A stretch of DNA of 41,065 bases, taken from assembly GCA_045615405.1 (NCBI GenBank), contig JAZLET010000022.1:1-41065 (forward strand). Direction: 5' to 3'. Every line of letters starts with the position of its first letter. Position 1 is the stretch's first letter. Below the pieces are notes generated by a model that was given only the letters and a program-made list of their open reading frames with translations, ran no database searches and had not been told where the DNA came from. Positions 2,083 through 41,065 of this stretch are shown here, piece by piece. The DNA is from Candidatus Fimenecus sp. GTDB taxonomy: Bacteria; Bacillota; Clostridia; Oscillospirales; Acutalibacteraceae. The translations under genes were made by a program, and so were the position numbers.

Positions 2083-2943
2083 ATGCAACTTGTTATAGTA
2101 ACAGGTATGTCAGGCGCAGGTAAATCAAGAGCTATTGATACTCTTGAGGATATTGGATTTTTTTGCGTTGATAATATGACTCCAAAACTTATTCCTACAT
2201 TTGTTCAACTACTTAATGACACCGCTGAGGTGCGTGAGAAGGTTGCAATTGTTGCTGATATTCGTCTTGGTGGCTCTTTTGCGCAGCTTTTTAGCGCTAT
2301 TGAAGAGCTTAAGGCAATGGAATGCAACTACAAAATTCTTTTCATTGATGCTGATAATGATGTGATTTTGAGAAGATATCAAGAAACACGTAGAAAGCAT
2401 CCGTTGCTTAATTATGATGATTCACATACTTTGCAAGAAATTATTAGTAAAGAGCGTGAAATACTTAAAAAAGCAAGAAATATTGCAGATTATGTAATTG
2501 ATACATCTTTAATTTCTCCTGCACAGTTAAAAGAACGTGTAGCAAAACTTTTTCTTGAAGATTTAACAGCAACTCTTAAGGTTAATGTTATTTCATTTGG
2601 GTTTAAATATGGTTCACCAAAGGATTCTGATTTGGTGTTTGATGTTCGTTGTCTGCCAAATCCGTTTTATGTGCCAGAACTTAAAAATCATACAGGGCTT
2701 GAAGCACCTGTTCGCGATTATGTTATGAGCTTTAAAGAGGCTCGGGATTTAGAACCTAAACTTCTTGATTTAATCAATTATTTAGTTCCACTTTATAGAA
2801 GTGAAGGTAAAAGTCAGGTAACCATTTCGGTTGGTTGTACAGGTGGTAAACACCGTTCCGTAGTTTTTGCGGAAATTATTTATAATTCAGTTAAAGAAAA
2901 AGGATTCAATGTTTCAGTCTACCATAGAGACATTATAAGATAG
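2083..2943 (+). CDS. rapZ: RNase adapter / nucleotide-binding protein RapZ (YvcJ family)
   Basis: Walker A VTGMSGAGKS, C-terminal GCTGGKHRSV, 286 aa. Confidence 0.88.
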   Translation: MQLVIVTGMSGAGKSRAIDTLEDIGFFCVDNMTPKLIPTFVQLLNDTAEVREKVAIVADIRLGGSFAQLFSAIEELKAMECNYKILFIDADNDVILRRYQETRRKHPLLNYDDSHTLQEIISKEREILKKARNIADYVIDTSLISPAQLKERVAKLFLEDLTATLKVNVISFGFKYGSPKDSDLVFDVRCLPNPFYVPELKNHTGLEAPVRDYVMSFKEARDLEPKLLDLINYLVPLYRSEGKSQVTISVGCTGGKHRSVVFAEIIYNSVKEKGFNVSVYHRDIIR

Positions 2944-2953
2944 GATTTTTAAT

Positions 2954-3856
2954 ATGTCATTTTCAGCAAATGTAAAAAATGAAATATTAAGTGTTGAACT
3001 TGAAAACGAGTGTTGTCTTCATGCTTTTGCATATGGAATGATGCTTTTTTCAAGAGCATTTTCGTCTTATGATATGTCAATTCTTACTGAAAATAGTGGA
3101 ATTGCCGAGAAATATCTTGAGCTTATGAAAAAAGTTTGTAAGGTTAATGCTAAACTGGTTAAAACCGAAGCAGGTAAGTTTAAGGTTGAAGTTGTAAGTG
3201 AAGATGAAAGATATAAGGTGCTTGATACTTTTGGTTATGATAAAAAAAGTACAGCTTCTAGATTAAATTGGGCAAACTTTTCTGACGAGTGTTGTAAAAC
3301 TGCTTTTTTAAAGGGTGTGTTTCTTACTTGTGGCACAGTTAATGACCCTAATAAAAGCTATCATTTAGAGTTTGTTGTTCCTTATCTCAACTTAAGTAAA
3401 GATTTGAAGTTATTCATAAATGATTATGACCAGTTATCAGTAAAACCACGTAGCATTGTTAGAAATTCTAATCATGTTATTTATTTTAAAGATAGTGAAG
3501 CTATTGAAGATATACTGACTGTTATGGGCGCTGTAAATTCGTCTTTAGAAATTATGGGTGTAAAGATGTATAAGGATATGCGTAATAATGTAAATAGAAA
3601 GCTTAACTTTGAAAACGCTAACCTTGATAAAACTCTTGATGCATCAACAAAACATATTCAAGCAATTATACATATAAAAGATACTGTAGGACTTTCATAT
3701 CTTTCTGATGAGCTTCGTGAAGTGGCAGAGCTGAGGTACGAAAATCCTGATATGTCTTTACGTGAATTAGGTAGTAAACTTAAAGTTCCTATTTCACGCT
3801 CAGGTGTAAATCATAGACTTGCAAAGATTTGCAAGATTGCCGAACAAATAAAATAA
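2954..3856 (+). CDS. whiA: DNA-binding sporulation/cell-division regulator WhiA
   Basis: Length of 300 aa, degenerate LAGLIDADG-like core, and a C-terminal HTH (ISRSGVNHRL). It sits right after rapZ. Confidence 0.85.
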   Translation: MSFSANVKNEILSVELENECCLHAFAYGMMLFSRAFSSYDMSILTENSGIAEKYLELMKKVCKVNAKLVKTEAGKFKVEVVSEDERYKVLDTFGYDKKSTASRLNWANFSDECCKTAFLKGVFLTCGTVNDPNKSYHLEFVVPYLNLSKDLKLFINDYDQLSVKPRSIVRNSNHVIYFKDSEAIEDILTVMGAVNSSLEIMGVKMYKDMRNNVNRKLNFENANLDKTLDASTKHIQAIIHIKDTVGLSYLSDELREVAELRYENPDMSLRELGSKLKVPISRSGVNHRLAKICKIAEQIK

Positions 3857-3879
3857 TTACGGATTTTAGGGTGAAAAAG

Positions 3880-4476
3880 ATGAGAAAAGCAGAAGATTTT
3901 TTAATTCCATTTGAAACAACTGAATATGGAAAAAAGGATGAAAATAAATCGTGGCGATTTGTTTATGATTGGCTTGATTCCTTGATTTATGCAATAATTC
4001 TTATTTTAATAATATTTGCATTTTTCTTTAGAGTTGTAGGTGTAAATGGTGACTCAATGAATCCAACCTTAAAATCGGGTGATTGGCTTACTGTTAGTGC
4101 AATAACAACTGAGGTTGAAAGAGGCGACATTGTTGTTATTACCCAACCTAACTCACTTAATGAACCGCTTATTAAACGCGTTATAGCAAAGGGTGGCGAC
4201 AAAATCAATATTGATTATATTGAAGGTACTATCACCGTAAATGGTATGACATTATATGAGCCATACATTACTGAGCAAATTGAAGCTGCAGGTGATTTTG
4301 TTTATCCATTAGAAATTCCTGAGGGCTATATTTTTGTAATGGGTGATAATAGAAATGATTCTCTTGATAGCCGTTTTAAAGTTATCGGTTTAATTGATGA
4401 GCGTTACGTTTTAGGCGTTGCAAACGCAAGAATTTATCCGTTTGGTGATTGGAATATTAATGATGAAAAAAAATAA
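3880..4476 (+). CDS. lepB: signal peptidase I
   Basis: N-terminal TM segment, catalytic GDSMNPTL and KRVIAKGGD, and GDNRNDSLDSR. The ORF-track start 3829 overlaps whiA. ATG 3880 (or GTG 3871) is more plausible. Confidence 0.85.
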   Translation: MRKAEDFLIPFETTEYGKKDENKSWRFVYDWLDSLIYAIILILIIFAFFFRVVGVNGDSMNPTLKSGDWLTVSAITTEVERGDIVVITQPNSLNEPLIKRVIAKGGDKINIDYIEGTITVNGMTLYEPYITEQIEAAGDFVYPLEIPEGYIFVMGDNRNDSLDSRFKVIGLIDERYVLGVANARIYPFGDWNINDEKK

Positions 4477-5008
4477 ACAACTACTTGAAACAATATATGA
4501 AATGGCATCTATTATACTAACCTCAATCTTAGCGGTTGGTGTTATATTTACATTCTTTTTTAAGATTTCTATTGTTTCTGGTCAGTCTATGGAAAATACA
4601 TTAAAACATGGCGATAACCTGATAATAAGTTCAATTACAACTAAAATTAATCAAGGTGATGTTGTTGTTATTTCACAACCTAATGGTTATGAAAAAGTAC
4701 TTATTAAAAGAGTTATTGCAGTTGGCGGACAAACAGTTGCTTTTGATAAGACAACTGGTGAAACAGTAGTAGATGGTGTTAAAATTAACGAACCATATGT
4801 TAAAGAAGATATCAAATGTAATTACTCTATGATGAGGGAATATGTTGTACCATACGGCAAAGTATTTGTAATGGGTGATAATCGCAACCATTCTGCTGAT
4901 AGTCGTGATGTTGCAGTAGGTATGATAGATGAAGATTATATAATGGGAAAAGTAATTTATCGTATGGGTGATAACACCTTATTTGAGAAGGAGACCACAA
5001 ATGGCTGA
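4460..5008 (+). CDS. signal peptidase I (second tandem copy)
   Basis: TM segment, GQSMENTL, KRVIAVGG and GDNRNHSADSR. The ATGATG start at 4460 overlaps the previous gene by 17 nt. TGA stop. Confidence 0.85.
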   Translation: MMKKNKQLLETIYEMASIILTSILAVGVIFTFFFKISIVSGQSMENTLKHGDNLIISSITTKINQGDVVVISQPNGYEKVLIKRVIAVGGQTVAFDKTTGETVVDGVKINEPYVKEDIKCNYSMMREYVVPYGKVFVMGDNRNHSADSRDVAVGMIDEDYIMGKVIYRMGDNTLFEKETTNG

Positions 5009-5867
5009 TAATCAAAAGCAAATTGTTCAATGGTTTCCTGGGCATATGGCAAAAACCCGCCGTCTTATAAAAGAAAGCTTATCGCTTGTTGATGGCGTGA
5101 CTGAAATCATTGATGCAAGAATTCCGTATAGTAGTTCAAATCCTGAGCTTGAAGAAATAATTAATAATAAACCAAGAATTGTATTGCTCAATAAATGTGA
5201 TTTAGCTGACAAAACAACAACAAGTCAGTGGGTAGAGTTTTACAAGAAAAAAGGAGTTACTGCAATTCCTGTTGATTGTAGAACTGGTAAGGGTTTAAAT
5301 AATTATATTATAGCTGTTCGCGAAGTGCTTAAGGATGTCATAAAAAAGAACGAAGATAGAGGAATGCCAGGTAAAGCGCTACGCATTATGGTTGTTGGTA
5401 TTCCTAATACTGGTAAATCTTCATTCATTAATAGAATGGCAGGGGCAGCAAAAGCAAAGGTTGCTGATAAAGCAGGTGTTACAAGGCATAATCAGTGGTT
5501 TAATATTGGTAATGGCATTGAACTTCTTGATACGCCTGGTGTGTTATGGCCTAAATTTGATGACCCGCAAGTTGGTGATAGACTTGCTTTTATTGGTTCA
5601 GTAAAGGATGAAATTCTTGATGCCGAAACGCTTGCAATAAGACTTTTAGAGGTTATGAAAAATAATTATCCTGAAAGACTTGCTGAAAGATATAAAATTA
5701 CTGATTTTACCGACAAAGAAGCATGGGAAGTTCTTGAACTTATTGGTAAAAAACGCGGTATGATGATTAAAGGCGGAGAAATTGATTACGAAAGAGCATC
5801 GGTAATGCTACTTGATGAATATCGTGGTGGAAAACTCGGCACAATTTCTCTTGAAAAACCGGAGTAA
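5001..5867 (+). CDS. rbgA: ribosome biogenesis GTPase A (YlqF/RbgA)
   Basis: WFPGHMAK N-terminus, circularly permuted GTPase motifs (NKCDL, GIPNTGKSS, DTPG). ATG 5001 overlaps the upstream TGA (ATGGCTGA). Confidence 0.88.
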   Translation: MADNQKQIVQWFPGHMAKTRRLIKESLSLVDGVTEIIDARIPYSSSNPELEEIINNKPRIVLLNKCDLADKTTTSQWVEFYKKKGVTAIPVDCRTGKGLNNYIIAVREVLKDVIKKNEDRGMPGKALRIMVVGIPNTGKSSFINRMAGAAKAKVADKAGVTRHNQWFNIGNGIELLDTPGVLWPKFDDPQVGDRLAFIGSVKDEILDAETLAIRLLEVMKNNYPERLAERYKITDFTDKEAWEVLELIGKKRGMMIKGGEIDYERASVMLLDEYRGGKLGTISLEKPE

Positions 5868-13962: not shown

Positions 13963-14003
13963 TATTGTATAATTGAGTTTAAAATTCTTTCTTGGAGGAA
14001 TTT

Positions 14004-15374
14004 ATGAATATATTATATAAATTTCAAAAATCAATTGTTTTTATATTAAAAACAATAATGTATATTTTATTAACCGCAACATTCTTCTTGATTTTTGCAA
14101 CTGAATATGAATGGATTATTCATCTTTCAAGAACAGCTGGTGTTACATTTGTTACATTCTGCGTACTTGAAACAGCACTTGTGTCTATTTATGGTGGTTA
14201 TGCCATAGGAAGACTTAAAAGTAAACCCATTGTAATGTCTTTGGCTCTTGCAACTTTCGCAACTGATATTGTTACTCATCTTCAGCTTTGCATTATGAAC
14301 GTTAACGAAAATAATAACGATTTTTTTGTGTATGAGTCACCACATCTTTTAATTCTTGTAATGCTTATACAAGGTATTTTAATTTTATTCTTTGCTTATT
14401 TTGGTAACTATGTTTATTTTACAATCAATCCACCAGAAAAATGCTGCATTATTACAAGTTCCGAAGAATCTCTTAACAACATAGTACCTAAGGTTAAAAA
14501 ATATAAAAAACAATATAATATTGTTCATATGATTCATTATACATCAAGAAATGCTTTTGATATTATTAATGAGTGTGATACAATTTTCTTGTACGATATT
14601 CCTGCTAACGAAAGAACACTTTTAAATGAGTATTGTTACGCTAAAAATAAGAATATTTATTACAATTTTGAAATGAACGATATTGTCATGCTTGGTGCCA
14701 AAGCAGCGCTTCTTGATGATAAACCATTAGTTTCAGCAATTGTTCGTGATTTAACCTTTGAGCAAAGATTCGTTAAAAGATTAATGGATATTGTTATCTC
14801 AGGTTTGGGCTTAGTTGTATGTGGTCCAATTATGCTTGTTTGTGCAATTCTTATAAAAGCGGAAGATGGCGGTAGCGTATTCTTTAGACAGTTGCGAGCA
14901 ACTAAGGGCGGAGAGTTATTTAATGTTTATAAATTCCGTACTATGAAAGAGGAAAATGCTGAAAATCGCTCAGTTACTTCAGATGATGATAGAATTACAA
15001 AGATAGGTAAATATCTTAGAAAATTCCGCATTGACGAATTACCACAACTCATTAATATCATTAAAGGTGAAATGAGTGTAGTAGGTCCTAGACCTGAAAT
15101 GGTTGAAAATGTTGATAAATACACACAAGAATTACCTGAATTCTCATATAGATTACGCGTTAAGGGTGGACTTACAGGTTACGCACAAATTGCTGGAAAA
15201 TACAATACATCACCAAAGGACAAGCTTGTTCTTGACTTAATGTATATTGAAAAATATAGTTTGTGGTTAGACTTTAAATTAATAATGCAAACTGTCACAG
15301 TGTTGCTTAGAGCAGGTGACAGTACAAAAGCATTCTCAAAACAAAAAAATAAATATCATTTTACTGAAAAATAA
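14004..15374 (+). CDS. polyprenyl-phosphate glycosyl-1-phosphate transferase (WbaP/EpsL-type bacterial sugar transferase)
   Basis: N-terminal multi-TM region plus a C-terminal Bac_transf core (KRLMDIV ... FRQLR ... YKFRTM ... DELPQLINIIKGEMSVVGPRP). ATG 14004 follows TTGGAGGAA. Confidence 0.85.
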   Translation: MNILYKFQKSIVFILKTIMYILLTATFFLIFATEYEWIIHLSRTAGVTFVTFCVLETALVSIYGGYAIGRLKSKPIVMSLALATFATDIVTHLQLCIMNVNENNNDFFVYESPHLLILVMLIQGILILFFAYFGNYVYFTINPPEKCCIITSSEESLNNIVPKVKKYKKQYNIVHMIHYTSRNAFDIINECDTIFLYDIPANERTLLNEYCYAKNKNIYYNFEMNDIVMLGAKAALLDDKPLVSAIVRDLTFEQRFVKRLMDIVISGLGLVVCGPIMLVCAILIKAEDGGSVFFRQLRATKGGELFNVYKFRTMKEENAENRSVTSDDDRITKIGKYLRKFRIDELPQLINIIKGEMSVVGPRPEMVENVDKYTQELPEFSYRLRVKGGLTGYAQIAGKYNTSPKDKLVLDLMYIEKYSLWLDFKLIMQTVTVLLRAGDSTKAFSKQKNKYHFTEK

Positions 15375-15398
15375 GGACTTTTAAGTCCTTATTTTATT
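15373..15398 (+). terminator. rho-independent terminator
   Basis: AAGGACT/AGTCCTT stem with a 4-nt loop, followed by ATTTTATT. It overlaps the stop codon. Confidence 0.6.
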
Positions 15399-15425
15399 GT
15401 TTATATTTATTTTTTGTGTTATACT
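15397..15425 (+). promoter_or_regulatory. sigma-A-type promoter for the LCP-like/TGase-like/fol operon
   Basis: TTGTTT (15397-15402), 17-nt spacer, TGtTATACT extended -10 (15420-15425). This would exclude the ORF-track TTG start at 15414. Confidence 0.45.
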
Positions 15426-15455
15426 AAATTAAATATAGATGAATATGGTGTAGAT

Positions 15456-16277
15456 ATGAAAAATAATTTTAATAAATCTACAATTAAATACTTTTTAATT
15501 TCTTTTTTTATATTCGTTGTGATTTTAGGTGCATGTTCAATTGCTTTGTTTATGCATTCTCTTGATTATGATTTTTCTAATCTTGTAGATAATTCAACAA
15601 CTACTACTGAAAATTTTGAAGAAGAATCCGTAACTATTAATTCTACTAAAGAGCTTACTGGAAAATCAAATATTCTTTTTATTATAGAAAAGAATGATGG
15701 TTTGGATTTCGCTTTTATTGTAGCAACTGATTTTGAAAAACAGTCAATGCTGGTCAAATGTATAGATGGTAGAGATAATTTAAATTATCAAAATAGAATG
15801 TTGAAATTTAGCAGTGTTTATGAAAATTATTATGAGGTTGGTGCTAAAAACGCTGTATTTGAAAATTATGGAATTGCAATAGATAAGTTTGTTGTATTTA
15901 ATGAAAAACAATTTGAAGATGTACTTTCATTGTTTAATGGTTTTTCAATTGATGTTAAAAGTGATATTAACTATAAATCCCACAAATTTAATTTGACTCT
16001 TTCAAAGGGTTTACAAGAGTTATCTCCGGATTTGACATATAAGTATTTGCAAATTAGTGATAATTCAACTCGCGAGAATATTGTTTGTGGCATAATTAAG
16101 TCAGTTCTTGTGACGGAATATGCTGAGAAGTCGGATAAACTTTTTACTTCTTTTGTTAATTTGTGTTATACCGATATTTCAGTTGTTGACTATTCAGAAA
16201 GTATTGATACACTTAAAACTTATTGTAACGCCAATGATAAATTTTATCCCATTGCGATGGAGGTAGATGCAAAATGA
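15456..16277 (+). CDS. membrane-anchored LytR/CpsA/Psr (LCP)-like protein, divergent
   Basis: One N-terminal TM segment. The layout NILFII ... FAFIVATD ... LVKCIDGRD ... YGIAIDKFVVFNEKQFEDVLSLFNGFSIDV resembles the LCP fold pattern, but the usual Arg/Asp positions look substituted. Confidence 0.4.
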   Translation: MKNNFNKSTIKYFLISFFIFVVILGACSIALFMHSLDYDFSNLVDNSTTTTENFEEESVTINSTKELTGKSNILFIIEKNDGLDFAFIVATDFEKQSMLVKCIDGRDNLNYQNRMLKFSSVYENYYEVGAKNAVFENYGIAIDKFVVFNEKQFEDVLSLFNGFSIDVKSDINYKSHKFNLTLSKGLQELSPDLTYKYLQISDNSTRENIVCGIIKSVLVTEYAEKSDKLFTSFVNLCYTDISVVDYSESIDTLKTYCNANDKFYPIAMEVDAK

Positions 16278-17453: not shown

Positions 17454-18017
17454 ATGGATAAGCAAAGAATTGAAAACGCTTTTCGTGAAATATTGTTAGC
17501 AATAGGTGAGGACCCTGATAGAGAGGGGTTGCAAGAAACTCCCAAGCGTGTTGCAAATATGTATGAGGAAATCTTTTCAGGACTTAGTGAAGACCCTGAA
17601 AAGCACCTTAAAATGTTCCGCGAAGGACAAAGTGACGAGATTGTAATTGTGCGTGATATTCCAATGTATTCAATGTGTGAGCATCATTTCTTACCTTTTG
17701 TTGGTAAAGCACATATTGCTTACATACCTAACGATGATGGTCTTGTAATTGGTCTTTCTAAGCTTGCGAGAATAGTAAATACATATGCAAGAAGACCTCA
17801 ACTTCAAGAAAGATTAACAGCACAAATTGCGGATTTTATCCAAGATTCAATGAATCCAAAAGGCGTTGCAGTTGTTGTTGAGGCAGAGCATTTGTGTATG
17901 ACAATGCGCGGAATAAGAGCAGCCGGCTCAAAAACTCAAACATCAGCGCTTAGAGGTTCAATGAGAAAGGATGCACGAACAAGAGCCGAAGTAATGACTC
18001 TTTTAGGAATAAAATGA
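17454..18017 (+). CDS. folE: GTP cyclohydrolase I
   Basis: [11 protein letters not shown] and HLCMTMRG motifs, 187 aa. Its SD (GAAGG) lies inside the last codons of the upstream gene. Confidence 0.93.
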
Positions 18018-18842: not shown

Positions 18843-19205
18843 ATGGATAAGATTATTGTAAAAGATTTAGAATTATTTTGTTATCATGGAGTAAATCCAG
18901 AAGAAAAAGAAGATGGTCAAATTTTTGTTTTTGATATTGAGGCTAGTGCCGATTTGTCAAAACCTTGCTTGACCGATAATGTTGACGACACAGTTAGTTA
19001 TGCTAAAATCATAAAAACCGTACGTAGGGTTGCGCAAAGCGAAAAAAATGATTTGATTGAACGTGTTGCACAAAGGGTAGCTGATGAATTATTCAATGAT
19101 TTTGAAAAAATTAAAACCCTTAAAATTACATTAAAAAAACCACAAGCGCCAATTAAGGCGGACTTTAATTATGTTGCTGTAGAAATTGAAAGGGCAAGAG
19201 TATGA
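18843..19205 (+). CDS. folB: dihydroneopterin aldolase
   Basis: 120 aa, with GVNPEEKEDGQIF and DDTVSY patterns. Lies in a folate-operon context. Confidence 0.85.
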   Translation: MDKIIVKDLELFCYHGVNPEEKEDGQIFVFDIEASADLSKPCLTDNVDDTVSYAKIIKTVRRVAQSEKNDLIERVAQRVADELFNDFEKIKTLKITLKKPQAPIKADFNYVAVEIERARV

Positions 19206-38675: not shown

Positions 38676-38679
38676 TAAA

Positions 38680-38700
38680 AAGCAGGCTTTATGCCTGCTT
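38680..38700. terminator. bidirectional terminator hairpin overlapping the 3' end of the minus-strand phosphatase gene
   Basis: AAGCAGGC/GCCTGCTT stem flanked by AAAAA and TTTTTT. Confidence 0.7.
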
Positions 38701-39234: not shown

Positions 39235-39486
39235 TTGAGTATTTTAGTTGAAGAAAGAGCTGCAATGTTAGGTGAATATATAGTTGAAAATAAAACTACA
39301 GTCCGCGCTACTGCAAAAGCGTTTGGAATAAGTAAAATTACAGTACATATGGATGTTGCTCAACGCCTTAAAAGATACGACCCCAATCTATATTTTCAAG
39401 TAAAAAAGGTGCTAGAAATTAACAAGGCTGAAAGACATATAAGAGGTGGGCTTGCAACTAAAGAAAAATATCTTAACCAAAAATGA
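39235..39486 (+). CDS. spoIIID: stage III sporulation transcription factor SpoIIID
   Basis: 83 aa. The HTH TVRATAKAFGISKITVHMDV and C-terminal RHIRGGLATKEKY closely parallel B. subtilis SpoIIID. TTG start follows AAAGGAGGG. Confidence 0.9.
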   Translation: MSILVEERAAMLGEYIVENKTTVRATAKAFGISKITVHMDVAQRLKRYDPNLYFQVKKVLEINKAERHIRGGLATKEKYLNQK

Positions 39487-39515
39487 AATTATATAGAGAT
39501 TTTTCCATAAATCAC

Positions 39516-39543
39516 TTGAAATTTGACTATATTAGTGTATAAT
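39516..39543 (+). promoter_or_regulatory. sigma-A-type promoter for ileS
   Basis: TTGAAA (39516-39521), 16-nt spacer, TATAAT (39538-39543). This leaves a leader of only about 40 nt. Confidence 0.5.
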
Positions 39544-39591
39544 ATTATTCGTTAAAATGTGTACATATACACTTGAAAGGTGGACAATATA

Positions 39592-41065
39592 GTGGCAGAC
39601 GAGAAAAATCTCTTTGTTGACCTTGAGCATCAGGTCATGAAGCTTTGGGAAGAAGAGAAATATTACGACAAACTTGTTGAAAAAAATAAGGGTAAGCAAA
39701 TGTTCCGTTTCCTTGACGGTCCTATTACTGCAAACAACCCAATGGGTATTCACCATGCTTGGGGTAGAAGTACAAAAGATACTTTTATTCGCTATAAGTC
39801 AATGCGTGGTTATGATTGCCGTCGTCAAAATGGTTTTGACTCACAAGGTCTTTGGGTTGAGGTTGAAGTTGAAAAGCAACTTGGCTTTAAAACAAAAAAA
39901 GACATTGAAAATTATGGTATGGACAAGTTTACACGTCAATGTGTTGACCGTGTAAAACACTATTCAGGTATTATTACTGAGCAGTCAAAGAGACTCGGTA
40001 TGTGGATGGATTGGGATAATTCATACTACACAAATACTGACCTTAATATTCAGGGTATTTGGCATTTCTTAAAGGAATGTGATAATCATGGTTGGATTCA
40101 ACGTGAATATAAGCCAATGCCTTGGTGCCCTCGTTGTGGTACATCACTTTCTGAGCATGAAATGACAGGCTCATACAAAATGATGACTCATAACTCAGTT
40201 TTCTTCAAGCTTCCTATTGAAGAGCTTAATTCAAAAATCCTTGTTTGGACAACTACTCCTTGGACTCTTTCTTCAAACGTAGCGCTTGCAGTTAATCCTG
40301 ATATTGACTATGTTGAAGTAAAAATTAAGAGTGATGACCAAACATTAATTCTTGCTAAGAATGCTATTAAGTATCTTGGCGATGATAAACTTGAAGTAAT
40401 TCGTGCACTTAAGGGCGAAGAGCTTGTTGGTCTTCACTACGAAACTTGTTTTGCTGATATTCCTGCGCAACAAGGCTTTGAACACAAAATTGTTGCATGG
40501 GAAGATGTTGCAGCTGATGAAGGTACAGGCGTTGTTCACATTGCTCCAGGCTGCGGTATTGAAGACTTTGAACTCGGTGAGAGAATTGGTCTTCCAAAGG
40601 TTATGCCTATTGATGATATGGGTATTTATCTTGAAGGCTTTGGCTTTATGACTGGTAAAGACAGCCATACAATTGCTGATGAGGTTTTTGAAAAACTCCA
40701 AGAGCAAAATAAACTTTATAAAGTTGAACCACACGAGCATAGCTATCCAATTTGCTGGAGATGTAAGAGTGAAATCGTTTTCCGTCTTGTTCCTGCTTGG
40801 TACATTAAGACAAGTGAAATCAAGCCTAAACTTATTGAATGTGCAAATTCAGTTAAATGGGAGCCTGCTTGAAATGGTAACCGTATGAATGACTGGCTCA
40901 CAAATATGGGTGACTGGAACATTTCTCGTAAGAGATATTATGGTATCCCACTTCCTTTCTATCCATGTAGCTGTGGTCATATGACAGTTATTGGTTCAAA
41001 GGATGAACTACGCGAGAAGGCTGTTGATCCTGCACAGGTTGATGCTCTTGCTGAACTTCACAGTC
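39592..41065 (+). CDS. ileS: isoleucyl-tRNA synthetase-like class Ia aaRS, 3'-partial at window end, interrupted by one in-frame TGA at 40870-40872
   Basis: GPITANN ... HH (PPTANG-like HIGH region), WCPRCGTSLSEHE editing-domain zinc motif, and DWNISRKRYYGIPLP after the TGA in the same frame. GTG 39592 follows AAAGGTGG. Assignment to IleRS rather than ValRS rests on motif memory only. Confidence 0.65.

Follow-up and report, generated by a model that had tools for sequence, protein, structure and literature searches.

An in-frame TGA in the ileS gene of a Candidatus Fimenecus metagenome contig is probably an error at the contig end

Reassignment of UGA to a sense codon is known from Mycoplasmatota, where it is read as Trp (genetic code 4), as well as from Gracilibacteria and Absconditabacteria, where it is read as Gly (code 25), and low-efficiency decoding of UGA as Trp is known in Bacillus subtilis. 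A T-box riboswitch precedes many aminoacyl-tRNA synthetase genes of Firmicutes. For the isoleucyl-tRNA synthetases, a non-canonical signature motif (G/AXHH) was defined within the type-2 enzymes (IleRS2) by Brkic et al. (2023, Nat Commun 14:5498, PMC10485003), and this form of IleRS2 was linked to mupirocin hyper-resistance in the same study. Both IleRS1 and IleRS2 are present in some bacteria (PMC10485003).

The window analyzed here is an entire contig of 41,065 nt from a metagenome-assembled genome (MAG), in which an ileS gene truncated by the contig end contains one in-frame TGA, located therefore 195 nt from that end. Judged from comparison with related loci, this TGA is probably a contig-end error, and the real gene would be an intact housekeeping ileS whose codon 427 is TCA (Ser). 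The features needed below are as follows (window coordinates):

39235–39486, + strand: spoIIID, upstream neighbour of ileS, ending in TGA (Pfam SpoIIID, 2e−34)
39592–41065, + strand: 5′ part of ileS, type-2 IleRS, 1474 nt (491 codons), truncated by the contig end
40870–40872, + strand: in-frame TGA, codon 427 of ileS, a Ser codon in all relatives
40870–41065, + strand: terminal 196 nt of the contig, with a cluster of bases found in no relative (ungapped alignment)

Gene content and genetic code of the window

Pfam scans of 39 ORFs recovered an ordinary run of intact, full-length housekeeping genes, namely hprK, murB, rapZ, whiA, two genes for signal peptidase I, rnhB, thrC, tig, clpP, clpX, a folate operon (folE, folB), lon, dnaE, pfkA, aroK, spoIVB and spoIIID, together with an EamA-family transporter and LytR. 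The original prediction, made from the sequence alone, had described the TGA at 40870–40872 as the sole stop in the ileS frame and had read NGNRMNDWLTNMGDWNISRKRYYGIPLPFYPCSCGH in the same frame after it; both statements hold for the frame from GTG 39592 to the contig end and for its translation. It was also correct that TGA ends eight genes (stops starting at 5006, 13903, 16275, 17447, 18015, 19203, 30833, and 39484), that there are three ATGA stop/start overlaps (16274–16277, 18014–18017, and 19202–19205), and that the other conserved genes are uninterrupted, as no other long Pfam-supported ORF has an in-frame TGA. The absence of global recoding, which it had likewise claimed, is borne out by the eight TGA terminators and the single in-frame TGA in the window.

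The genes terminated by TGA, dnaE, folE, folB, and spoIIID among them, have lengths consistent with their orthologs. SpoIIID in particular is 83 aa long both in the window and in most of the relatives' loci (an 83-aa spoIIID is also found upstream of ileS in contigs L001, L002, L084, L086, and L088), and this confirms TGA as a terminator of translation in this genome; since spoIIID adjoins ileS as it does in the relatives, the locus is the native ileS locus. The genome thus uses the standard code, to which the TGA in ileS is the single exception, and a reassignment of UGA to sense (code 4 or 25) was rejected on account of the eight terminators and of the lack of an in-frame TGA in any other real gene.

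Elsewhere in the window, two tandem signal peptidase I (S26) genes lie at 3829–5008, and their ORFs as listed overlap by ~59 nt, which is probably due to over-extended upstream TTG starts and not to a real overlap. The GC content falls to 0.283 at 14001–16000 (vs. ~0.34 elsewhere), where a sugar transferase and LytR-family genes are encoded, and this cell-envelope polysaccharide region may have been acquired horizontally. At 38676–38688 the window has a spacer of only 13 nt where its relative L002 has an extra gene of 831 aa without a Pfam match (L002:2577–5072), located between the genes for an FAD-oxidoreductase and an LMW phosphatase.

The ileS gene and the residue at its in-frame stop

The ileS gene starts at GTG 39592 (or GTG 39580), and its frame reaches base 41064 with one stop. 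Its translation (495 aa) matched the NCBIfam model TIGR00392 (ileS) with an E-value of 1.4e−137 and 460 bits, a score that lies below the 621-bit cut-off for full-length proteins because only 495 of ~1044 residues are on the contig; the KMSKS loop, the anticodon-binding domain, and the IleRS2-type C-terminal domain are all past the contig end. The best PDB matches of the product were IleRS2 structures (1ile of T. thermophilus, 8.6e−101; 8c8w of Priestia megaterium, 3.9e−94), and IleRS1 chains scored lower (1ffy, 3e−62; 8c9f, 2.8e−63). The class I signature motif reads GIHH, not HXGH (GPITANNPMGIHHAWGR; window 39742–39780, residues ~51–62), stands in the context ...NNPMGIHHAWGR, where its counterpart in the 8c8w mutant chain is GVHH, and is conserved among the close relatives read. 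The equivalog match, the structure matches, and the motif all place the predicted product in IleRS2, within the G/AXHH subgroup, and a GIHH-type IleRS2 is already known biology.

Full-length relatives of this gene encode 1044 aa, with Anticodon_1 and DUF5915 domains, and share the spoIIID-ileS synteny. Their amino-acid identity of ~97% at a nucleotide identity of ~90% indicates strong purifying selection, which together with the conserved synteny points to a functional ileS. Only ~105 nt separate spoIIID from ileS (39487–39591); neither a T-box nor any other Rfam match was found in this leader, and ileS therefore has no recognizable T-box riboswitch here.

The residue that the TGA replaces was identified from two sets of homologues. 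A homologue search led to a 90% cluster with 207 members, including the window's own 426-aa product, in which nearly all members read are 1044 aa long, and every full-length member read has WEPA-S-NGKRMNDWL, with Ser where the window has the TGA. A scan of the GTDB species representatives gave 80 ileS loci, mostly from MAGs labelled Candidatus Fimenecus, Clostridia, Oscillospiraceae, or Ruminococcaceae and several of them from ruminant guts, of which 78 cover the TGA site. The codon there is a Ser codon in all 78 (TCA in 60, TCC in 15, and TCG in 3), and the implied change, TCA to TGA, is therefore a C-to-G transversion.

These codons do not agree with the TGG-to-TGA transition that had been proposed, and the orthologous loci, which the original prediction had suggested comparing for TGG vs. 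TGA, have neither. Its placement of the TGA opposite a conserved Trp holds in one respect, as the ungapped alignment does meet a Trp in some IleRS1 (WVPTWGETR in 8c9e and NWGKTR in 1ffy, both type 1), but this Trp is not conserved across the family and the relatives have Ser. The site is occupied by Ser in the type-1 chain 8wnf and by His in the type-2 structures 1ile and 8c8w, while more distant homologues have Phe, Ala, Tyr, His, or Trp, and never Cys. An alignment putting the stop at a non-Trp position had been named in advance as evidence against the Trp reading, and the alignment within the gene's own subfamily does so, with Ser at the site. The Trp of some IleRS1 is thus irrelevant to an ileS of the IleRS2 subfamily, and residue identity is to be judged from a gene's own subfamily (here IleRS2), not from the IleRS1 of E. 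coli.

Anomalous bases in the terminal 196 nt

The window ileS was aligned without gaps to 39 relatives (79–91% nucleotide identity), and the bases found in none of them were counted. Only one such unique base is present in nt 1–1278 of the gene vs. eight in nt 1279–1474 (Fisher p = 7e−7), i.e., 40871 G, 40881 C, 40933 A, 40935 A, 40983 G, 41010 A, 41050 G, and 41064 T. The first of the eight is the G of the TGA, so that the cluster begins exactly at this codon, and 40947 C is a further odd change in the tail, giving M452I. When the same 196-nt stretch was examined relative by relative, 38 close relatives had 0–2 unique bases each, and the most divergent one (L036) had 11. Unique residues follow the same distribution, with one in codons 1–426 (K36Q, at a variable site) vs. 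six in codons 427–491 (S427*, K430N, M452I, I464M, P487A, and R491S), and K430, P487, and R491 are invariant in 39 of 39 relatives.

The spectrum of substitutions also changes at this point. The unique changes in the tail are all transversions, without a single transition, and are rich in C/G swaps. Relative to the nearest relative, transitions and transversions number 90:30 (~3:1) in the gene body vs. 6:13 in the tail (p = 3e−4), and C/G swaps account for 2 of 120 differences in the body vs. 4 of 19 in the tail; across the nearest relatives, the corresponding figures range over 1–3 of ~120 and 4–5 of 19–35 (p = 0.003–0.01). With the singletons set aside, the tail is 90.3% identical to its best-matching relative (median 86.7%), and the body segments have 90–96% and 86–91.5%, respectively; the tail is therefore as near to the relatives as the body is and should come from the same lineage. 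One pair of tail changes (CGT to AGA) is synonymous, for which the chance under random error was estimated at ~0.1. The closest comparators are other species at ~90–92% DNA identity, and the nearest cluster members (P0141, P0123, and P0039) are at 88–92%. No copy of the window's allele was found by exact pattern in the GTDB representatives. At the opposite end of the contig, the first 172 nt are intergenic. The tail is not part of any inverted or direct repeat, for which reason a contig-end artefact caused by fold-back or repeats was rejected.

Ten other contigs that begin or end within ileS served as controls. Clusters of unique changes consisting of transversions only were found at the contig end in two of the ten, L031 (six changes in the last 50 nt) and L052 (three in the first 45 nt).

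Disrupted ileS sequences are found in further public records of the clade as well. A search for homologues of the 64-aa tail peptide gave short proteins only and pointed to L089 (ENA ERZ28583762, scaffold_2066), where a related ileS (2813–3000) contains stretches of N, frameshifts, and a TGA in frame. This TGA falls on the codon for the conserved Arg of ELHRPW, R491, which reads AGT (Ser) in the window; the disruption is plainly technical. A frameshift near residue 200 divides the ileS of L088 (ENA ERZ28595553, scaffold_815; 2121–5250), and P0003 has an apparent frameshifting deletion of ~100 nt over the region of the window's TGA, as deduced from its protein sequence; both look like assembly defects. 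The protein P0002 (426 aa, ending in ...WEPA) was considered as a second genome with the TGA and rejected, as its contig ends 2 nt before the codon. This contig, L001 (GCA_017547725.1, JAFYOY010000069.1), belongs to a MAG of another species that is ~91% identical, and it ends at window position 40868. Six further contigs (L026, L039, L067, L052, L056, and L087) likewise start or stop within ileS, and the breaks in L001 and these others suggest an assembly-graph branch point in a conserved stretch. Being conserved and common to many species at 88–92% identity, ileS is evidently hard to assemble.

Explanations of the stop and comparison with known systems

If the nonsense mutation were real, the population or a minority strain would have a truncated ileS, or the gene would be a decaying copy with a second IleRS encoded elsewhere in the genome. 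The TGA is indeed present in the deposited contig, the damaging changes K430N, P487A, and R491S that follow it are what one would expect of untranslated sequence, and the co-occurrence of IleRS1 and IleRS2 in some bacteria (PMC10485003) makes room for a redundant copy. A dead gene should, however, relax throughout, while here the first 426 codons have one conservative unique change and the 65 codons after them have six; the excess consists entirely of transversions in a gene whose natural spectrum is transition-rich, and ileS is intact and in the same synteny in 78 of 78 relatives. Signs of a pseudogene (damage across the whole gene, indels) were sought by comparison with the relatives, and we found the 426 codons ahead of the stop to be under as much constraint as in any relative, and no indels. 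A real nonsense mutation is accordingly unlikely, and the decaying paralogue that had been put forward for this locus is contradicted by the lack of relaxation in these upstream codons. Production of a full-length IleRS by decoding of the UGA, through near-cognate tRNA-Trp, a suppressor tRNA, or selenocysteine, appears less probable by far. The frame after the TGA does stay open and recognizably IleRS-like, and leaky UGA-to-Trp decoding is known in B. subtilis, but the ancestral residue is Ser and not Trp, Cys, or Sec, TGA is the normal stop of eight genes in the window, and selection on the downstream codons would be expected, whereas K430N, P487A, and R491S fall on invariant sites. Programmed or tolerated readthrough should leave a stop conserved among relatives, and no TGA allele at codon 427 was found in the GTDB species representatives (0 of 78) or by pattern scans of the JGI metagenomes. 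The earlier suggestion that UGA is read as Trp here thus gained nothing from the comparison, with Ser at the site and the TGA unconserved, and an essential enzyme made by readthrough of a few percent, with changes at invariant sites in addition, is implausible. We regard it as extremely improbable that the TGA is real and that the sole IleRS is made by readthrough or suppression at a Ser codon, be it in a leaky-termination strain or with a newly arisen suppressor system. If true, the dependence of an essential aminoacyl-tRNA synthetase on UGA readthrough would be a remarkable example of recoding in a Firmicute with the standard code.

Signals of recoding were sought in the window itself: the fold of 40860–40950 was no better than that of shuffled sequences (z = −1.33), which speaks against a hairpin 3′ of the TGA, and neither an Rfam match (SECIS included) nor a tRNA was found in the window. 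Selenocysteine or a structured recoding signal was rejected on these results and because homologues never have Cys at the site. A split gene with a restart was rejected as well, since the 15 nt preceding the next in-frame ATG (40885) contain nothing like a Shine-Dalgarno sequence and the gene is contiguous in the relatives. A chimeric join, by which the last 196 nt would stem from the reads of a congener in the same sample or from some divergent piece of ileS and not from this genome, is very unlikely, though a shade less so than decoding of the UGA. Many congeneric species, several of them from ruminant guts, have an ileS that is 88–92% identical, and many contigs break within this gene (L001 and the six others named above), both of which would favour such a join. 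The tail without its singletons is nevertheless as near to the relatives as the body, a real congener would have neither the stop nor the changes at invariant residues, and the unique bases occur in none of the 78 species representatives.

A sequencing or assembly error, the remaining suggestion of the original prediction, is the best supported of its three readings, given the cluster of singletons in the terminal 196 nt and their unnatural spectrum. The anomaly is limited to the contig terminus, and its substitution spectrum is unlike the natural divergence in the same gene. Under an error at the contig end, the last 196 nt of this short-read metagenome-assembled contig would be of low quality and poorly supported, with roughly nine wrong bases, the TGA among them, for which we infer an origin in sequencing or assembly. 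The underlying gene would be the ordinary, intact type-2 ileS (GXHH variant) of a Candidatus Fimenecus-like Oscillospirales bacterium. Several observations count against such an error: the anomalous stretch of 196 nt is longer than the contig-end clusters of the controls (≤ 50 nt), there is no specific sequencing chemistry or assembler step to name for the bias toward C/G swaps, the synonymous CGT-to-AGA pair weakly suggests real evolution, and even the closest comparators are only ~90–92% identical, so that a real, lineage-specific variant is an alternative. On balance, this in-frame TGA is best not treated as a real feature of ileS. As a caution for similar cases, where an in-frame stop stands alone within a few hundred bases of the end of a MAG contig, the sequence should be checked for clustered singletons relative to related sequences before the stop is interpreted biologically.

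Among the described systems, codes 4 and 25 share with this locus an in-frame TGA in a conserved gene and differ from it in that only one such TGA is found in 41 kb here, where eight genes end at TGA. The UGA-to-Trp decoding of B. subtilis is similar insofar as a Firmicute has an in-frame UGA in an otherwise intact gene; here, however, Ser is replaced, the TGA is unconserved, and more damaging changes come after it. The likeness to the G/AXHH group of IleRS2 (PMC10485003), consisting of the GIHH motif and the IleRS2 structural relatives, bears on what the gene is and not on its stop. Error-rich contig ends of short-read metagenome assemblies share with the window the singleton transversions at otherwise invariant sites in a contig-terminal position, from which the window differs in that its cluster is longer than those of the controls and unusually rich in C/G swaps.
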